Virus genome (UHGV): UHGV-0385605
Length of the DNA: 6,056 nucleotides
Direction: 5' to 3' (one strand)
DNA from: a virus
How positions within the stretch are numbered: position 1 is the stretch's first letter; each line of letters begins with the position of its first letter. Below are positions 10 through 6,056 of the stretch, piece by piece. The position numbers and the translations under genes were made by a program. A model generated the notes under the pieces. It had not been told where the DNA came from and searched no databases. It was given only the letters and a program-made list of their open reading frames with translations.

Positions 10-414
10 ATGGAAAAATCAGCTACAGAAAATACAGAACTACCAGCTTTTAACGCTGAAATAAACAAAGTAGTAGATGTATTATTCCCTATCGATAATG
101 TAACACATAACCCTACAAGTGCTGTAAACACTTTAATCTCTCCTACAGCTAGTCAGCTAGATAAAGAGAAATATGCTAGTATGATGCAAAAAGTACCTAC
201 AGACAGAAGTAACAAAGGCTTAGACGATGAAACAATTATGGCTACAACACCAAGTAGAAAAAACCAAACTTTAACAGATATGGATAAATACGCTAGTGCA
301 GTAGCTAGTTACGCAGAATTAACCGGTATGCAGAATGGAAAAGAAACAACCCCAGCTAATACAGAACCTAGTACAAATGTATCGGCAGAACCTGCAACAA
401 GTTCAGCAGAATAA
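10..414 (+). CDS. Hypothetical acidic, Thr/Ser/Ala/Glu-rich low-complexity protein with an internal DKxKYAS duplication. Possibly a scaffolding-like or virion-associated protein. May be the C-terminal part of a 152-aa protein whose start is at 6012 if the genome is circular.
   Basis: ORF from the six-frame track. The reading frame is open from base 1 (ctc gaa gta ATG) with no upstream stop. It uses the same + strand as all the other genes. Two similar motifs are present: gataaagagaaatatgctagt at 160-180 and gatatggataaatacgctagt at 277-297. No recognisable catalytic motif. Confidence 0.5.
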   Translation: MEKSATENTELPAFNAEINKVVDVLFPIDNVTHNPTSAVNTLISPTASQLDKEKYASMMQKVPTDRSNKGLDDETIMATTPSRKNQTLTDMDKYASAVASYAELTGMQNGKETTPANTEPSTNVSAEPATSSAE

Positions 415-429
415 ACAACAATTGAGTAA

Positions 430-453
430 GGGAGAAACCTCCCCTACTCTTTT
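430..453 (+). other. Short GC stem-loop (GGGAG-aaac-CTCCC) followed by a T-rich tract, between the acidic ORF and VP2
   Basis: Read directly: gggag 430-434 pairs with ctccc 439-443, with loop aaac. It is followed by tactctttt. It could be a weak intrinsic terminator/attenuator or an RNA processing or stability element. The AAGGGAG sequence is too far (33 nt) from the VP2 ATG to act as a ribosome-binding site, and an in-frame TAA at 453-455 forbids an earlier start. Confidence 0.25.
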
Positions 454-467
454 AAACTTTAATAGCT

Positions 468-1679
468 ATGATAGTACAAAATGTAATAAGTAATAAATTA
501 GGCTTATCGCCTTTAATTACTAAACAAAAAAATATTGCCCCCGCAGTAGGTGCAGCTTTAGTTAGTGCAGCCGGTTCTCTTTTCGGTGGTGCTGTAAACT
601 CTGGTAATAGTTGGGCAAAACAACAACGCCAAAACGATTGGAATGTAAAAGTACAAGATTATTTCTTGAAAAAACAACAAGACTATAACGATAAAATAAA
701 TCAACAGAATTTCGATTGGCAAGACGAATCTAATGTAAGAGCAAGAATAGAGAAAGCAGGATATAACCCCTATCTTTACAACGGACAAGCAAGCTCACAA
801 AGTGTAGCAAGCAATTCGGCAGGTAGTCCTCCTAGTGAAAATATGCCTAGTGGATATGATAACTCGCTTGGTCAAGGTATAGCGAATATGGGTAACTCTT
901 TCGCTCAAGTTTTAGGAGCGATGCAAGATTACAGAAATAAAGACCAAGAATATAAAAGAAATGCTTTGGCAGATGCTTATATGAATGAACAAACTGGAGG
1001 TAATGGAGGTGTTTTAGGTGCAACAAGTTTTGCACAATATAAGCAGGCAAATGCTGTAGCTAATATGAATGATGCTAATAGATTTCATCAAGAAATGATG
1101 AATAAAATAGACCAAATGCAATATATTGACAAAAACGGAGTACCACAGACTAACCCAGACGGAACGCCAATGACATTAGCACAGGCAAATGGATTAGGAA
1201 TGTCTCGACAATCAATGGTTAATGTAGAAAAAGCAGTAAAGGAAATTTCATTACTAGCAAGTCAAGGAAAATCTATAGATCTTGATAATATTGTAAAAAA
1301 ATGGAAGTTAGATAATGGTTATCACGTTCAAGAATTAAACCTTTTAAAAACACAAGTTAGACAGCTTCAGTCACAGATATTTCTTAATAATGCAAATACA
1401 TTCTTAGCTTATCAAACGGCTAAAACTCAACAATTTACGCAAGATAATTTATTCGCTAATACTCAATACATTAACGCCCAAAGGAATGGATATAACTCTA
1501 TGTTACCTCTACAACGTGGATTAATACAATCACAAATACAAGGTAATAATTTGAATAACTTATATAATCATGGTGTTCTGAATTCTAGAATTAATTACGA
1601 AAACTTTAATAACCAAACTTTTGGCTGGCTGTCTCCACAGACAATTATGCCAATATTTGGCGGTTTATTTAAAAAATAA
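468..1679 (+). CDS. VP2: Microviridae minor capsid / DNA pilot protein (VP2 / H-like)
   Basis: 403-aa ORF. The N-terminal segment is Gly/Ala-rich and hydrophobic (APAVGAALVSAAGSLFGGAVNSGNS). It is followed by a long Gln/Asn/Ala-rich, predicted coiled or low-complexity body and a C-terminal IFGGLFKK. This architecture and size are typical of microvirus pilot proteins. The position between the small acidic ORF and the large intergenic region fits the VP1-X-VP2-VP4 order. There is no Shine-Dalgarno sequence, as for all genes here. Confidence 0.65.
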   Translation: MIVQNVISNKLGLSPLITKQKNIAPAVGAALVSAAGSLFGGAVNSGNSWAKQQRQNDWNVKVQDYFLKKQQDYNDKINQQNFDWQDESNVRARIEKAGYNPYLYNGQASSQSVASNSAGSPPSENMPSGYDNSLGQGIANMGNSFAQVLGAMQDYRNKDQEYKRNALADAYMNEQTGGNGGVLGATSFAQYKQANAVANMNDANRFHQEMMNKIDQMQYIDKNGVPQTNPDGTPMTLAQANGLGMSRQSMVNVEKAVKEISLLASQGKSIDLDNIVKKWKLDNGYHVQELNLLKTQVRQLQSQIFLNNANTFLAYQTAKTQQFTQDNLFANTQYINAQRNGYNSMLPLQRGLIQSQIQGNNLNNLYNHGVLNSRINYENFNNQTFGWLSPQTIMPIFGGLFKK

Positions 1680-1811
1680 AGAAATAAAATATTAAAGCAA
1701 AGACTATTCTAATAGCTATCATTACAGCTATAATAGTTAATATCAATCTTAATATATTACTATATTCATTATCATTCTTCATATCTTTATATTTTAATTT
1801 ATTGTATAAAC

Positions 1812-1832
1812 ATTTGTAATTTATTTACAAAT
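1812..1832. repeat. AT-only inverted repeat / hairpin (ATTTGTAA-tttat-TTACAAAT) in the AT-rich part of the intergenic region
   Basis: Read directly. The 8-bp arms at 1812-1819 and 1825-1832 are perfectly complementary with a 5-nt loop. It sits within a roughly 200-nt stretch (1680-1885) that is almost entirely A/T. Confidence 0.5.
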
Positions 1833-1889
1833 ATAAGATATTAACTTGTCTTACATCTATGTAAATTTAATTATTTATGCTTTATTAAC

Positions 1890-2170
1890 TCTGCGCTGTG
1901 AAGCGTGGAGTTATTTTATTTTTGGGGGTATAGGGGGCATTTTTAATGCCTCCCATAGCGTCTAGCACTACAAAGCGTCAGCGGTTAAGGCGCTAGGGCT
2001 TGCCCTCGTATGACGAAATGAGCGAATGCGACATGTAGGAATTAAAGCGCCCCTTATACGTCAAAAAAAGGCTTTTTAAAGCCGTAAAAATGAAAAAACC
2101 TCCGCTTTTTTCCCTACTTTCTTGTTTTAAGTAGGGAAAACTGACACCACGCTAAATGCGTGGGCAGTTT
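1890..2170. other. GC-rich, hairpin-dense non-coding island inside the large intergenic region. Candidate complementary-strand (minus) origin and/or structured RNA.
   Basis: This block has roughly 50% GC, against AT-rich flanks. Several stem-loops can be read directly:
- GGGGGCAT-tttta-ATGCCTCCC (1933-1954)
- AGGG-cttg-CCCT (1996-2007)
- TGACG...CGTCA (2010-2014 / 2059-2063)
- GGCTT-ttta-AAGCC (2070-2083)
- GAAAAAA-cctccgc-TTTTTTC (2092-2112)
- CCCTACTT-tcttgtttt-AAGTAGGG (2112-2136)
- CTG..CCACGC-taaat-GCGTGG..CAG (2141-2167)
No ORF of 60 aa or more falls in any frame. Confidence 0.55.
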
Positions 2171-2171
2171 T
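2141..2171 (+). terminator. Candidate intrinsic terminator closing the circular transcription unit (GC stem CCACGC/GCGTGG plus outer CTG/CAG, then TTTT)
   Basis: The stem-loop at 2147-2163 is followed by gcag and TTTT at 2168-2171. It is preceded by two further perfect hairpins at 2092-2136. It lies downstream of VP2 and upstream of the Rep promoter, which is where a terminator would be expected for a single-strand, single-direction genome. Confidence 0.35.
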
Positions 2172-2235
2172 CATCAACAAATCAAAAAAACCAAGGTTTA
2201 AAGACTAAACTATTACTAAATAAATATAAACTTTA

Positions 2236-2260
2236 ATTAACGTTAATCATACTGTTAATT
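2236..2260. promoter_or_regulatory. 12-bp perfect palindrome ATTAACGTTAAT with a second GTTAATT half-site 6 nt downstream. Candidate operator or protein-binding site just upstream of the promoter.
   Basis: Read directly. 2236-2247 is its own reverse complement. GTTAAT recurs at 2254-2259. Both lie immediately 5' of the putative -33/-7 promoter elements. Confidence 0.3.
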
Positions 2261-2262
2261 AT

Positions 2263-2293
2263 ATTGCAGTTCAGAACAAAAAACCTATATTTG
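2263..2293 (+). promoter_or_regulatory. Bacteroidetes-type (sigma-AB-like) promoter with a -33 TTG at 2264-2266 and a -7 TATATTTG at 2286-2293
   Basis: The sequence contains attG followed 19 nt later by TAtaTTTG. This matches the published Bacteroides consensus of TTTG at -33 and TAnnTTTG at -7 with a 19-21 nt spacer. It sits directly upstream of the small ORF / Rep gene. No other TAnnTTTG was found in front of any other gene in the window, consistent with one polycistronic transcript. Confidence 0.4.
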
Positions 2294-2297
2294 TGGC

Positions 2298-2480
2298 ATG
2301 AACTTTGATATAGTCGATAATTTCAATGAAACAAGCCCTTATATACTTACTTGTGGTGATTGTTCTTGGTGTGTACTTAATTTTAGTAGCAGTGGACACC
2401 TTACCGGCTTTATATGTTCTAATCATCCTAGCCACCCTGAGGTGAAATTAACAGATAAATGCCACTTACTCTATGAATAA
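2298..2480 (+). CDS. Small Cys/His-rich hypothetical ORF (60 aa) with a CxxCxxC signature, overlapping the Rep start by 8 nt. Coding status uncertain.
   Basis: ORF from the six-frame track. It contains CGDCSWC ... C ... H ... HPSHPE ... CH, which is a possible zinc-ribbon-like motif. Its stop overlaps the Rep ATG (ATGAATAA), suggesting translational coupling. The predicted transcription start falls at its ATG, which would make it leaderless. The putative origin-like motif also overlaps its 5' end, so it may be non-coding. Confidence 0.25.
   Translation: MNFDIVDNFNETSPYILTCGDCSWCVLNFSSSGHLTGFICSNHPSHPEVKLTDKCHLLYE
2301..2330 (+). promoter_or_regulatory. Candidate plus-strand replication origin (Rep nick site), phiX174-ori-like AACTTTGATAT followed by an AT-rich spacer
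   Basis: The phiX174 origin begins CAACTTG^ATATTAATAAC, where gene A protein nicks between G and A. Here 2301-2311 reads AACTTTGATAT, a 10/11 match with one inserted T. It is followed by agtcgataatttcaatg. In phiX the origin lies within or next to gene A, and here the motif lies just 5' of the Rep gene. This call is inference from motif similarity only. Confidence 0.3.
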
Positions 2481-4263
2481 TTTAACCGATAAACAATCGT
2501 TTTCAGACAAAGAATTTCAAATAAGTCCCAATCTATTTGGATGTTTAAAACCTAGTATTATTTATAACAAAAATACTGGGCACTACGAAAGTGTACCTTG
2601 TAAAAAATGTGTTTATTGTCTAAATGTAGAAGCTAGTAGACAATCTTCAAGAGTAAAAAAAGAAATTCAACAACATATATATAGTGTATTTTTTACACTT
2701 ACATATAATAACGAATTTATACCACGTATGGAAATGTTTAAAGACAAACACGGAAAAACTCAATTTAAACATATAGGTAGAACTGCAAATATGCACGATT
2801 CTACACCATACAACTCTAAAGGCTTAGACCATCGTTATCGATATTCAGACAATGTAGAAATACCTGAAATTGAGAAGAACGAACAAATAACAAAAAAACA
2901 TGTACAATTCGGTGTTGTCTGTAAAAAAGACATACAGAATTTTCTCAAGCGTTTACGCAAAAAAATCGATAAATTAAATCTTTCAGATAATGACAAAAAA
3001 ATTCGTTACTACATCGCATCAGAGTATGGACCAATTACCAAACGTCCGCACTACCATGGTATCATCTTCTTTGATTCCAAACAACTCGGCTCTCAGATTA
3101 AAAATCTCATCGTTGAATCATGGGGTATTTTCGAAAAAGAATCCGGTAAATTTAATAAGTATAAGTTTACACCATTTGCGGATACTTTTCGTACCCTCGA
3201 ACACATCAAAATATGTGATCCCAACACAGCAAAATATGTTGCTGAATATGTTGCAAGTAATATGGGTTTACCAAAAATGTTACAAGAACGCTGTTCAAAG
3301 CCGTTCCATTTACAATCTAAAAACCCTGTTATCGGTGAATTCAAAGCTAGCAGGAAAGAAGTTTTCGAACTTATCGACTCAGGAATTATCAGACAAAATC
3401 GCACAATATTTACAAAAGATGGAGTTGAAACAAAAGCTTATCTTCGCATATCCCAAGATTCATTATCTTCCGTTTTCCGCAAGTGTTACCGATTTAGTGA
3501 GTTATCTAATGATTCAAAATATAATACTTATAACTTCTATTCTAAATACATCAGAGAATGGAAAGAATATATAAATACTAAACTTATAAATTATGCTATT
3601 AAAAATAATATTAGCTTTGATAGAGTTAATCTCTCTTTTTATCTTCGAAAAAATCGTTCAGATTATTTCCGTTGTTGGTGCTCTATTAACAAAAGTGAGG
3701 AGTATAATAGACTTGAAATGGACAAAGACCAGAATTGGTATAGTTCTAAAAATGTTTATAAACTATCTCAAGAACTTGACATTATTCGATATAGTTACTT
3801 CGGTGATTTTACTCGTGCTTATCTTATTGTTTTTGATAGGTATTTATATCTATATGAACAAGATAGACTACGTGAGTTCTATAATAACTTTAATAACTTA
3901 ATTGATGAAGTTGGATATTATCCCGCAGAACTAGAAGTATTCCCAGTACTTAAGTATGCAATACCAAAGGTAAAAAAATATACACCTCATGGTGTTAACT
4001 TGTCTTTTGATACAGATAATGCAAAAGAAGAACGTTTAAGGCCTTATATAAATTATATCTTTAATACATCTTTTCAGTATTGGGTAACCCCTTACAATGA
4101 GTTTGGAAGTTTCGACCACAAAAAATATGGTGAAGAATATTCCGCAAGAAATACAAAAGTATTTCAACAATACATGGAAGAACAGAAAAATAGACTAGAC
4201 AAACGAAACAAGTCAAAAAAATTCAACAATATTAGAATAAATAATAATCGTGTTATGGATTAA
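2473..4263 (+). CDS. VP4: Rolling-circle replication initiator protein (HUH endonuclease, Microviridae VP4 / gpA-like). It has a large C-terminal extension of about 300 aa of unknown function.
   Basis: The three canonical rolling-circle replication (RCR) motifs are in the correct order and spacing. Motif I is FFTLTY (nt 2689-2706). Motif II is HYHGIIFF (nt 3049-3072). Motif III is AKYVAEYVASNMG with two catalytic Tyr four residues apart (Y255 at 3235-3237 and Y259 at 3247-3249), matching the phiX YVAKYV arrangement. There is an N-terminal Cys cluster (C24, C43-x2-C46-x2-C49). The protein is 596 aa. Confidence 0.9.
   Translation: MNNLTDKQSFSDKEFQISPNLFGCLKPSIIYNKNTGHYESVPCKKCVYCLNVEASRQSSRVKKEIQQHIYSVFFTLTYNNEFIPRMEMFKDKHGKTQFKHIGRTANMHDSTPYNSKGLDHRYRYSDNVEIPEIEKNEQITKKHVQFGVVCKKDIQNFLKRLRKKIDKLNLSDNDKKIRYYIASEYGPITKRPHYHGIIFFDSKQLGSQIKNLIVESWGIFEKESGKFNKYKFTPFADTFRTLEHIKICDPNTAKYVAEYVASNMGLPKMLQERCSKPFHLQSKNPVIGEFKASRKEVFELIDSGIIRQNRTIFTKDGVETKAYLRISQDSLSSVFRKCYRFSELSNDSKYNTYNFYSKYIREWKEYINTKLINYAIKNNISFDRVNLSFYLRKNRSDYFRCWCSINKSEEYNRLEMDKDQNWYSSKNVYKLSQELDIIRYSYFGDFTRAYLIVFDRYLYLYEQDRLREFYNNFNNLIDEVGYYPAELEVFPVLKYAIPKVKKYTPHGVNLSFDTDNAKEERLRPYINYIFNTSFQYWVTPYNEFGSFDHKKYGEEYSARNTKVFQQYMEEQKNRLDKRNKSKKFNNIRINNNRVMD
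2990..3574 (+). CDS. Candidate overlapping gene (194 aa, basic, Ser/Leu/Asn-rich) embedded in the +1 frame of Rep. Status unproven.
   Basis: A 585-nt open frame inside an AT-rich gene. The chance of about 194 stop-free codons in an alternate frame at this composition is very low (roughly 1e-6 per start under a crude random model). Microviridae are known for embedded genes, for example phiX B and K within A. No protein motif was recognised. Confidence 0.2.
   Translation: MTKKFVTTSHQSMDQLPNVRTTMVSSSLIPNNSALRLKISSLNHGVFSKKNPVNLISISLHHLRILFVPSNTSKYVIPTQQNMLLNMLQVIWVYQKCYKNAVQSRSIYNLKTLLSVNSKLAGKKFSNLSTQELSDKIAQYLQKMELKQKLIFAYPKIHYLPFSASVTDLVSYLMIQNIILITSILNTSENGKNI
3593..3901 (+). CDS. Candidate embedded membrane protein (102 aa, 2-3 predicted TM helices) in the +1 frame of Rep. 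Possible phiX-E-like single-gene lysis protein. Status unproven.
   Basis: The translation is MLLKIILALIELISLFIF...LFDIVTSVILLVLILLFLIGIYIYM, which is strongly hydrophobic with helical TM-like segments. It is in the same +1 frame as ORF 2990..3574 and separated from it by a single stop. The precedent is phiX174 E, which lies in the +1 frame of D. Caveat: +1 frames of AT-rich genes are intrinsically T-rich at codon position 2 and look hydrophobic by artefact. Confidence 0.25.
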   Translation: MLLKIILALIELISLFIFEKIVQIISVVGALLTKVRSIIDLKWTKTRIGIVLKMFINYLKNLTLFDIVTSVILLVLILLFLIGIYIYMNKIDYVSSIITLIT

Positions 4264-4305
4264 TTCTATAACATACATGTATAATAATTTAAAAATCAAT
4301 TAATT

Positions 4306-5979
4306 ATGTCACTTTCAAAAGTCCCTTTAATTAGACCAAGCAAAGCAAACAGACCTCGCAACGCTTTCGATTTATCTCAAAGACATTTATTTACCGCCCC
4401 CGCTGGTGCTCTTCTACCTGTCCTCTCTTTGGACCTCATGCCACATGATCATGTAGAAATTAACGCTAGTGATTTTATGAGAACCTTGCCTATGAATAGT
4501 GCAGCTTTCGTATCTATGAGAGGTGTTTACGAATTCTTCTTCGTACCTTACAAACAATTATGGTCAGGATTTGACCAATTTATAACCGGTATGAGTGATT
4601 ATAAAACCTCTTACATGTACTCTTTTAAAAATAAAGTACTTGAAAATTGCCCTAATTTCAGTATTCAGGATTTCGTAAAGTTCATTAATGCTAAAGCAGA
4701 TAAAGATATTCACGGATTCCCCAAAAAAAATGGTGTATTCAGAATGTTAGACCTTTTAGGCTATGGAAAATATTCAAATAGTTCAGGTACAGCCTATACA
4801 GATATTCCTGAAAAAACAACAAAAGATTTAGGTAATGTCACTCCTTTTAGAGCCCTCGCATATCAGAAAATATATTCAGACCATTACAGAAACTCAACTT
4901 ATGAAGATTTCCAAATAGAGTCTTTTAATGCTGACTTCTTCGGACAAAGTGGAAAAATGAAAGCAGTAGTTTCTAACGAACCATGGGATTACGACTGGTT
5001 TACTATGAGATATAGAAATGCAGGTAAAGATATATATACAAACTTACGCCCTACTCCTTTATTCTCTGTTGAAAACTTCGGTAATGGCTTAGCACCTGGC
5101 GCACTTGGTGTATCTGTTTCTAGTGATAAATTTAATACAGAAATAGACATCGTTAATAATAGTGGTAGTTTAAATCTTTCAGTAAATGATATTCGCAACG
5201 CTTTCGCCCTCGATAAACTCGCAAGTATCACAATGAGAGCAGGAAAAACCTATAAAGAACAAATCGAAGCACACTTCGGTATTTCAGTAGACGAGGGAAG
5301 AGACGGAAAATGTGAATACTTAGGAGGATTTGACTCTAATATGCAAGTTGGAGATGTAACCCAAACAAGTGGAACAACAACAACCGGACCTAAAGATACT
5401 AAATTCGGTGGATACCTCGGACGTACAACTGGTAAAGCTACAGGAAGTGGTAACGGACAAATTAAATACGATGCTAAAGAACATGGTATATTGATGTGTA
5501 TTTATTCAATAGTTCCCGATGTTCAGTATGATTCAACAAAAATAGACCCTTTCGTACAAAAAATACAAAGAGGTGATTTCTTTATTCCTGAATTTGAAGA
5601 CTTAGGAATGCAACCTTTATTCTGTAAGACTATTTCATGGAAATATGCTCAAGGTAACTTAAATTCTCCTACTGGCTCAAAATCTCCCGCTTTTGGTTGG
5701 CAACCTCGTTACTCAGAATATAAAACAGCATTAGACACAAATCACGGACAATTCTCAAATGGAGAACCGCTTTCTTTTTGGAGTATAGGTAGAGCTCGTG
5801 CTAACGACTTCTTACACACCTTTAATATCAGTAGTTTAAAAATTAACCCACATTGGCTAGATTCAGTTTTCGCAGTTGATTATAATGGAACAGAACTTAC
5901 CGACCAATTTTATGGAGAATGTTATTTCAATATTCTAAAAGTTTCAGACATGACAGTAGACGGCATGCCACGTGTATAA
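4306..5979 (+). CDS. VP1: Microviridae major capsid protein (VP1 / F protein)
   Basis: The 557-aa ORF has the conserved Microviridae VP1 N-terminal signature (R)N.FDLS..H.FT...G.L.P...L.P.D......R.LP......R.....FFVPY.QLW, here PRNAFDLSQRHLFTAPAGALLPVLSLDLMPHDH..MRTLPMNSAAFVSMRGVYEFFFVPYKQLW. Its size matches gokushovirus-type VP1. It contains a Thr/Gly-rich putative surface loop (nt 5356-5460). It lies downstream of Rep on the same strand. Confidence 0.9.
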   Translation: MSLSKVPLIRPSKANRPRNAFDLSQRHLFTAPAGALLPVLSLDLMPHDHVEINASDFMRTLPMNSAAFVSMRGVYEFFFVPYKQLWSGFDQFITGMSDYKTSYMYSFKNKVLENCPNFSIQDFVKFINAKADKDIHGFPKKNGVFRMLDLLGYGKYSNSSGTAYTDIPEKTTKDLGNVTPFRALAYQKIYSDHYRNSTYEDFQIESFNADFFGQSGKMKAVVSNEPWDYDWFTMRYRNAGKDIYTNLRPTPLFSVENFGNGLAPGALGVSVSSDKFNTEIDIVNNSGSLNLSVNDIRNAFALDKLASITMRAGKTYKEQIEAHFGISVDEGRDGKCEYLGGFDSNMQVGDVTQTSGTTTTGPKDTKFGGYLGRTTGKATGSGNGQIKYDAKEHGILMCIYSIVPDVQYDSTKIDPFVQKIQRGDFFIPEFEDLGMQPLFCKTISWKYAQGNLNSPTGSKSPAFGWQPRYSEYKTALDTNHGQFSNGEPLSFWSIGRARANDFLHTFNISSLKINPHWLDSVFAVDYNGTELTDQFYGECYFNILKVSDMTVDGMPRV

Positions 5980-6011
5980 TAAGATCATAACAAAAAAGAA
6001 AGGAAAATAAT

Positions 6012-6056
6012 ATGCATAGTTTTAATATCTTCTTTCCATATATGACCGAAGAGGAA
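6012..6056 (+). CDS. 5' end of an ORF (MHSFNIFFPYMTEEE...) running off the window. It is in frame with base 1, so it probably continues into ORF 10..414 on a circular 6056-nt genome.
   Basis: ATG at 6012-6014 is preceded by the purine-rich aaagaaaggaaaataat. There are exactly 15 codons to the window end and no stop. Position 1 continues the same frame (ctc gaa gta atg ...), giving a 152-aa product. This size fits a small scaffold or accessory protein. Confidence 0.35.
   Translation, partial: MHSFNIFFPYMTEEE

Follow-up and report, generated by a model that had tools for sequence, protein, structure and literature searches.

To our knowledge, everything understood in mechanistic terms about the conversion of single-stranded (ss) to double-stranded (ds) DNA was learned from phages of E. 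coli and from plasmids of Gram-positive bacteria. The packaged strand of microviruses has mRNA sense, as established for phiX174, and in rolling-circle plasmids the single-strand origin (sso) usually lies just upstream of where the nick is made. The complementary-strand origins of phages G4, St-1 and alpha3 are primase-dependent single-strand initiation (ssi) signals, whereas phiX174 uses a primosome site (protein n'/PriA), the ssoA and ssoU origins (e.g., of pMV158) depend on RNA polymerase, and Frpo/ssi single-strand promoters are found in plasmid leading regions. Mini-hairpin DNA of the class GCGNAGC/GCGNNAGC occurs at the G4 primer-synthesis site (GCGAAAGC), in St-1 and alpha3 (GCGTTAGC), in RSF1010 ssiA and in the N4 promoters, and is reported to bind single-stranded DNA-binding protein (SSB) poorly (PMC13037366). 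A passage of PMC9865509 that cites Shlomai and Kornberg gives the phiX174 F-G intergenic hairpin as the primosome recognition region, and a passage of PMC3105389 refers to work in which ssoA and ssoU matter for establishment after conjugative mobilization. The CS-6 hexamer of ssoA is TAGCGT/A (PMC6395029).

The DNA analyzed here is UHGV virus genome UHGV-0385605, a stretch of 6,056 nucleotides (hereafter the window) that proved to be a complete circular microvirus with all genes on the + strand. Its intergenic region contains a non-coding, hairpin-dense block at 1886-2172 that divides into three parts: an upstream hairpin (H0, 1886-1913), an element of ~135 nt (module 1, 1924-2059) and a hairpin cluster (module 2, 2092-2172), all read on the + strand. 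A preliminary description had proposed the block as the complementary-strand origin and drew attention to three perfect hairpins in tandem at 2092-2167. We find that a complementary-strand origin is the best-supported reading of module 1, but not of the tandem hairpins, which belong to a microvirus-only module with a phiX174-like motif. We read the block as a composite replication control region of a Prevotella-type microvirus.

Module 1 is conserved, consists of several helices and folds on the strand that is packaged (+). It opens with the sequence G5-TATA-G5 at 1924-1937, exactly where the preliminary description had placed it. In an alignment of 86 relatives the first G-run ends in three G that never vary (86/86), and the TATA is nearly invariant. 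The P2 hairpin (1929-1957) consists of TAT paired with ATA, a bulged A1932 and then GGGGGCATT paired with AATGCC(T)CCC, and is followed by mini-hairpin 1, GC[GTCTA]GC, at 1958-1966. Mini-hairpin 2, GC[GTCA]GC (that is, GCGTCAGC), occupies 1975-1982 and continues into GGTTAA, which ends at 1988. The direct duplication of AGCGTC(T/A)AGC noticed earlier exists, although its copies lie at 1957-1966 and 1974-1983 rather than at 1967-1986, and both copies are tandem GC[G..A]GC mini-hairpins. A closing helix, GGCGCT/AGCGCC (1989-2051), then encloses the P4 hairpin with its CTTG loop (1995-2006, three of four pairs with compensatory changes), a small hairpin (2007-2015) and GCGAATGC (2022-2029). The first G-run may pair with the 3' C-run at 2050-2053: RNAalifold, given the alignment across contexts, pairs the first-run GGG with the 3' CCC, whereas the model of the type-A relatives instead pairs CC with GG at 1983-1984.

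The joint alignment of phage and plasmid versions retained one common architecture. The 5' part of the family consensus is a G-run, TATA, P2 with its bulged A, and ATARCG-N1-3-AGYAC, which forms mini-hairpin 1; a 4-nt spacer, RA, mini-hairpin 2 and GGTWAA make up the middle, and the 3' part is the closing helix around two or three small hairpins, a C-run and (T/A)TATAC. Mini-hairpin 2 reads GCGAAGC, GCGTAGC, GCGTTAGC or ACGAAGT in relatives and has a longer insert with tandem G.A pairs in plasmid versions. The GGTWAA that follows is near-invariant, its strictly invariant part being GGT only. The closing helix is rewritten between subtypes as GGCGCW/WGCGCC, GAGGGCT/AGCCCTC, GGGCTGC/GTAGCCC, TGTGCGC/GCGCACG and others.

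Covariation, which the preliminary description had named as a check, was strong. Among 17 close relatives (type A) 99.2% of the cells were paired and 11 pairs were changed on both sides; none of 500 shuffles reached the observed value and slid controls were only ~40% paired. When the core was compared over 86 distinct sequences drawn from all contexts, 94% of cells were paired and five of the ten P2 pairs showed double changes, and again none of 500 shuffles reached the observed value. In those 86 sequences the outer pair of mini-hairpin 1 was G-C in 53, A-T in 32 and an exception in one. Pairs of G.T outnumbered those of A.C by 25 to 1 in the type-A relatives, which argues that it is the + (sense) strand that folds; the margin was narrower, 14 to 6, in the all-context core. 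One candidate helix was discarded: a long-range pairing of TATAGGGGG with the 3' CCCCTTATA, given by the minimum free energy fold of the single sequence, found no support in the covariation of type-A relatives, whereas the local P2 pairing covaries.

The hairpins of the block as a whole are real, as the earlier count of at least seven stem-loops had it; besides those of modules 1 and 2 they include the 12-bp hairpin H0 and a small hairpin at 2070-2083. Upon comparison with shuffled sequences the region 1880-2180 folded better than all of them (z-score -6.5 with DNA and -6.4 with RNA parameters, and -4.5 for the minus strand). The sources of this signal are 1884-1915 (DNA z -6.7) and 2086-2176 (z -5.6). 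H0 carries a GTGA loop, is followed by TTTTATTTTT (1914-1923) and was matched in a terminator scan; compensatory changes occur in 4 of its 12 pairs, with 99.5% of cells paired in 17 relatives. In the window's clade H0, with its T-run, ends 10 nt 5' of module 1 and probably terminates the capsid/VP2 transcript right before the element.

Conservation of the intergenic region in related microviruses exceeds that of the coding sequence: of the whole genome, only this region matched divergent oral microviruses at the nucleotide level in a search of 50,697 phage records. Its core of ~70 nt also matched IME-16 and a pig-feces microvirus. A pattern built on the core (GGGTAYAGGG..CCCRTARCG..AGYWC) was found in ~25 further microvirus contigs, in 19 contigs from genomes, mostly of Prevotella or Prevotellaceae with a few chance or mis-binned, and in at least 120 contigs from metagenomes. 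All locus counts given here cover the ~173 pattern matches listed, a few of which are chance matches in unrelated contigs. These comprise 57 microvirus loci and ~70 relaxase-adjacent loci, the rest being short contigs or contigs lacking a classified gene. The relaxase loci form three groups that are distinct by BLAST, namely a MobV-type group (with Pfam Mob_Pre matches and one NCBIfam MobV match), a MobA/VirD2-type group with a NikA-like partner, and a group that we call MobX. The last comprises proteins of ~600 residues with an HLDEGHEH motif that had no match in Pfam, NCBIfam or PHROG and are putative relaxases. The relaxase-like motifs HLDEGHEH...HAHYIF are seen in Prevotellaceae at L046 581-2374, L055 3762-5492, L063 3311-5098 and ~45 related loci.

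The carriers include an NBU-like chromosomal island of Prevotella sp. P5-92 with a relaxase, a DnaG-like primase and DUF3987, a 5.7-kb theta-replicating mobilizable plasmid, and plasmids of cultured P. nigrescens, P. melaninogenica and P. corporis. Module 1 is thus common, with its architecture intact, to diverse Bacteroidota microviruses and to relaxase-bearing plasmids and integrative mobilizable elements of Prevotellaceae. The composition of the block, which had looked foreign to the rest of the genome, reflects this sharing. No Rfam family matched module 1: at E≤10 the only match of the window within 1886-2172 was a chance match to Phe_leader (19.9 bits, E 9.6, against a gathering score of 55), and none fell at the element in 17 homologous loci searched at the gathering threshold, six of them also at E≤10. 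Likewise no description of the 1924-2059 element was found in the literature on the motif, on Bacteroides sso/ssi or on microvirus intergenic structures. What is new is therefore the family, its architecture and its distribution over phages and plasmids, as judged from Rfam and the literature searched, whereas single-strand origins are a known kind of function.

The placement of module 1 is strictly orientation-specific and beside the nick site of each type of element, the Rep origin in phages and the origin of transfer (oriT) in mobilizable elements. In phage loci it was on the gene strand in all 151 gene comparisons, 3' of VP2 in 46 of 51 cases and 5' of Rep in 22 of the 24 in which a downstream gene was seen. 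At nearly all loci with a relaxase, the neighboring gene or operon that encodes it begins 50-690 nt upstream of the element and runs divergently, on the opposite strand.

Module 2 lies just downstream and contains the three tandem hairpins, which are indeed present. The one at 2092-2112, GAAAAAA[CCTCCGC]TTTTTTC, belongs to a microvirus-only module; its loop CC(T/C)CCG is kept in other clades, in which the stem is wholly replaced by CAAACG/CGTTTG or GCGAAAC/GTTTCGC. The next, at 2108-2140, is specific to the window's clade; its 12-bp stem is perfect (2108-2119/2129-2140) and shows compensatory changes (CCCTACTT/AAGTAGGG versus CCCTCTTT/AAAGAGGG), and its loop (2120-2128) presents CTTG. The last, GAAAACTG...CAGTTTTC at 2136-2172 with the inner stem CCACGC/GCGTGG, overlaps a AAAACTGACA motif. 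Together they hold CTTGTTTTAAGTAGGGAAAACTGACA (2121-2146, with CTTGT at 2121-2125), the single composite site of the form CTTG-N13-AAAACTGACA in the window and our proposed viral-strand origin. Among the matches listed, 38 of 47 microvirus loci had CTTG(A/T)-N~13-AAAACTGACA at a distance of 170-215 nt downstream of where the element starts, whereas none of 59 relaxase loci and none of 37 other loci had it (0/96 together). The motif of one relative reads CTTGATAT.

The resemblance of module 2 to the viral-strand origin of phiX174 (CAACTTG^ATATTAATAACACTATAGACCAC, with the rep_origin annotated at 4306 within CAACTTGATATTAATAACACTATAGACCAC) consists of the CTTG, an A/T-rich spacer, an ACTGAC-type motif and the proximity of the Rep gene, and its likeness to phiX174 ACTATAGAC is approximate only. 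Unlike that origin, which lies within the rep gene, module 2 presents its site in the loop of an intergenic hairpin, and the predicted nick is followed by T rather than A in the window's clade. By this analogy 2092-2172 is most likely the viral-strand (Rep) origin, and we infer that Rep nicks after G2124, at CTTG^T (2124/2125), as in phiX174 CAACTTG^ATA. On this reading the tandem hairpins belong to the viral-strand and not to the complementary-strand origin. The same separate, microvirus-specific motif ruled out the core of module 1 as the Rep nick site. This makes CTTG...AAAACTGACA a candidate for the viral-strand origin in a large group of Bacteroidota microviruses that have not been cultured. 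A second, conserved CTTG motif, TTAACTTGTC, was seen at 1840-1849 inside the AT-rich spacer, ~280 nt 5' of the proposed nick site.

Module 1 resembles in kind the complementary-strand origins of G4, St-1 and alpha3, which are also non-coding, orientation-specific hairpin clusters on the packaged strand and have GCGNNAGC/GCGNAGC mini-hairpins; GCGN(N)AGC mini-hairpins occur here at 1975-1982 (GCGTCAGC) and 1958-1966 (GC[GTCTA]GC), and the GCGTTAGC of St-1 and alpha3 recurs in the module 1 family. No homology was seen beyond this mini-hairpin class, no sequence-homology test having been aimed at it. Module 1 differs from those origins in its Bacteroidota host, the G5-TATA-G5 sequence, the bulged hairpin, the closed multi-helix domain and the plasmid carriers. 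The phiX174 primosome site is likewise an intergenic hairpin region that starts the complementary strand, and its F-G sequences CGAAGCGGTAAAAA and AAGCGAAGCGCGGTAGG resemble the near-invariant AAGCG(N)AGCGGTWAAGG of module 1, although the overall structures are unrelated. The ssoA and ssoU origins share strand and orientation specificity and a position adjoining the nick site, but are from Firmicutes hosts and no homology with module 1 was found. The CS-6 hexamer of ssoA is present as TAGCGT at 1956-1961, at the base of P2 and in mini-hairpin 1 rather than in a terminal loop, and a search allowing up to three mismatches gave no match to the ssoA RSB. Frpo/ssi promoters fold on the strand that is transferred, at its leading end and beside oriT, a location (transferred strand, leading region) that homology to the pMV158 nick region gives for the MobX group only. 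Unlike Frpo, module 1 has no downstream genes oriented for expression from it, and 1924-2060 contains no sigma-70-like -35/-10 hexamers; nor was a Bacteroidetes -33/-7 mimic seen, direct reading of the element giving no TAnnTTTG.

The polarity of transfer could be addressed in the MobX loci, which have a pMV158-like oriT (GCACAC...hairpin and TAGTGTG|CTA) ~125 nt 5' of the element, the TAGTGTG|CTA heptamer being on the element-sense strand in 31 cases and on the other strand in none. The pMV158 nick was mapped experimentally at IR1 (inverted repeat 1) and ATAGTGTG/TT (PMC3105389). By this homology the strand transferred would be the one that bears the element in sense orientation, with the element at the leading end. 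Such a polarity fits the general rule by which genes of the relaxosome occupy the lagging region beside oriT (PMC11541004). Since the oriT is separate and ~125 nt away, the element is not the nick site in these loci.

Given these properties we consider it somewhat more probable than not that module 1 is a single-strand initiation signal (sso/ssi) of a new class, at which synthesis of the complementary strand would start, as judged from sequence comparisons. The carriers among the matches listed are restricted to elements for which an ssDNA stage is obligatory, and the recurrent loops are GNA triloops and GNNA or GNNNA loops closed by C-G (GCGAAGC, GCGTTAGC, GCGTCAGC, C[GAA]G, C[GCA]G, C[GGA]G). 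In the model that we propose, the phage genome or the conjugatively transferred strand would enter the cell as SSB-coated ssDNA, on which the very stable GC[G..A]GC mini-hairpins and the helices would stay folded despite SSB. A host priming activity, which could be primase (as in G4), a PriA-type primosome (as in phiX174) or RNA polymerase (as for ssoA and Frpo), would recognize the folded element and lay the primer for the complementary strand. Separately, in the phage, Rep would nick the CTTG^T presented in the hairpin loop of 2092-2172 and bind the conserved AAAACTGACA, and the terminator-like H0 together with the TATATTTG box at 2286-2293 would leave the origin region largely untranscribed. 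The broader proposal, that a single horizontally exchanged ssDNA start-up module serves ssDNA phages and mobilized plasmids or integrative mobilizable elements across Prevotellaceae through a conserved Bacteroidota priming activity, seems to us about as probable as its negation.

Several observations weigh against assigning module 1 this initiation role. The core alone (1922-2060) is thermodynamically ordinary under DNA parameters (z -1.25), so its stability was dropped as evidence and its structure rests on covariation. Many MobX-type loci have only a ~45-nt core (P2 and mini-hairpin 1), and hence the extended domain is dispensable there. Some loops (GTGA, CTTG, TTCG) are classic RNA tetraloops. 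The phiX174 likeness is a lead only: a profile of the RAGYGGTWAA segment had its best phiX174 nhmmer match at 2313-2326 (CGAAGCGGTAAAAA), which is short and not significant (E 0.18). Transfer polarity, moreover, was deduced for the MobX group only, from one main clade and one other lineage. As pMV158 nicks the mob-sense strand, the element would be on the non-transferred strand if the Bacteroidota MobV systems behave alike, and this gap in polarity for the MobV-type and MobA/VirD2 groups is the main weakness of the transferred-strand argument. In the MobV-type loci L050, L054, L092 and L148 a hairpin followed by RCCTAATA is on the mob-sense strand between the mob gene and the element. RCCTAATA is a candidate nick region of polarity opposite to that of MobX and, if real, conflicts with the transferred-strand argument at those loci. 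Finally, a primer at the leading end would be extended by only ~125-260 nt to the 5' end unless the strand were first recircularized.

The main rival, which we judge unlikely, is that module 1 acts as a structured non-coding RNA or cis-acting RNA domain made from the ds form, with a shared role in regulation, anti-defense or primer formation. The sense of the element is mRNA sense in phages and divergent from the mob genes in mobilizable elements, as a divergent transcript would be, and strong covariation that includes G.U-type pairs, the GNRA-like, CUUG and UUCG loops and the comparably favorable RNA folding of 1880-2180 (z -6.4) all suit an RNA. In IME-16-like phages the element begins 3 nt past the VP2 stop codon and so would be transcribed. 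What disfavors this alternative, which the preliminary description had also raised, is the covarying terminator-like hairpin and T-run 10 nt before the element in the window's clade, the confinement of carriers to elements with an obligatory ssDNA stage (among the matches listed), and loops of the GNA and non-GNRA GNNA types (GTCA, GTTA, GACA) closed by C-G, which are typical of DNA mini-hairpins; chance hits aside, Rfam gave no match even at E≤10. Nor is there a promoter motif: TAnnTTTG within 150 nt upstream was not enriched in the three classes of loci (10/46, 3/56 and 6/34, versus 12/46, 0/56 and 1/34 in shuffled sequences), although the third ('other') class was nominally above its shuffled control.

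It is still less probable, in our estimate, that module 1 is an oriT-like nick region or an accessory relaxosome or Rep site, in which case microviruses would be nickable or mobilizable by resident relaxases. With a hairpin and then a conserved single-stranded 3' stretch, module 1 has the layout of a classic oriT, its position 50-690 nt from relaxase genes is fixed, and the terminal inverted repeat GTATAGGGG...CCCCTTATAC recalls pMV158 IR2. In ColE1 bom, GTAGCGATAGCGG with its GCGATAGC mini-hairpin is upstream of the nick on the strand opposite the mob genes. However, nick sites are relaxase-specific, and the identical core is found both next to relaxases of three groups that BLAST separates and in phages that lack a relaxase and have their own phiX174-like origin. 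The pMV158-like nick region 125 nt away ruled out the core as oriT for the MobX group, and in the MobV-type and MobA/VirD2 contexts large inverted repeats, distinct from the element, intervene between it and the mob genes. The ColE1 bom resemblance, TAGCGATAGC, was set aside as a real 10-mer that gave no nhmmer score against the family profile, a profile that covers the adjacent mini-hairpin 2/GGTWAA segment and not the 10-mer. In ColE1 (L191 1400-1490, minus strand) the GCGATAGC mini-hairpin is preceded by a GGGGC...GCCC hairpin, an order of features as in the module 1 core. Most improbable of all is that module 1 serves in recombination or attachment (for example as an attP(+) that folds for host XerCD, as in the CTX phage) or as a packaging signal. 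The latter is at odds with the coupling of microvirus packaging to Rep-driven synthesis established for phiX174. Bacteroidetes microviruses do integrate at dif-like sites without an integrase of their own (PMC3091885), and an integrated relative is present in Prevotella sp. SGI.027. In that prophage and in the L061 contig, a metagenome-assembled genome, the element and the origin module are nevertheless internal to the phage-like DNA, the apparent L061 junction being ~250-350 nt further downstream; the L051 locus stops before any junction. Moreover, the element is G/C-rich, unlike dif, and is found in free plasmids with a theta-type Rep.

If the broader proposal of a shared start-up module holds, no complementary-strand origin would have been defined earlier for microviruses other than enterobacterial ones, and module 1 would be the first known case of an sso/ssi common to a virus family and plasmids. 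It bears on how gut and oral microviruses and Bacteroidota mobilizable elements make incoming ssDNA double-stranded, and as a compact, delimited element it offers an experimental handle and points to a conserved host activity that recognizes it. It also shows that phages and plasmids exchange modules. In metagenomes it offers a sequence marker for elements with an ssDNA stage, and in Prevotella and Bacteroides genetics it might be used as a part to improve the establishment of plasmids.

The genome is AT-rich (GC content 33.2%), as first described, and has a Phage_F capsid gene (4306-5979) and a rolling-circle replication (RCR) Rep gene (2473-4263; Pfam REP_ORF2-G2P, 4e-11; PHROG 942, replication initiation protein, 4e-37), together with a VP2-like pilot gene (468-1679) and an open reading frame (ORF) that wraps around the window ends (6012..414), all on the + strand. 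Its closest relatives (87% identity) are from the human nasopharynx and remoter ones from saliva. The GC content of the block had been put at roughly 50%, but was measured at 44.5% for 1890-2170, only the core 1924-2058 reaching 51%; the flanking spacer 1680-1885 has 16.5%. No ORF of ≥40 residues is present on either strand within 1680-2270, as had been noted. The intergenic length of ~790 nt (13% of the genome) holds, as 793 nt, only if the small ORF at 2298-2480 is not real; if it is, the region measures 618 nt (1680-2297, 10%). This ORF of 60 residues on the + strand is conserved and annotated in relatives. A scan for tRNA and tmRNA genes in the window found none.

The TATATTTG sequence at 2286-2293 matches the Bacteroidetes -7 promoter box TAnnTTTG and ends 4 nt before the ATG of the 60-residue ORF, which overlaps the Rep start via ATGA; both the -7 box and the ATG are kept in relatives, and the mRNA of this ORF may be leaderless or nearly so. 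A G+C-rich hairpin, GAGTAAGGGAGAAACCTCCCCTACTC (424-449), lies between the first ORF and VP2 and is terminator-like on both strands. The AT-rich TTAACGTTAATCATACTGTTAATTATATT at 2240-2268 is kept among otherwise divergent relatives, and the phage-like DNA of L061 apparently ends ~250-350 nt 3' of the element, in the region equivalent to 2240-2268. This segment may be a dif-like attP for XerCD-type integration, as in other Bacteroidetes microviruses.

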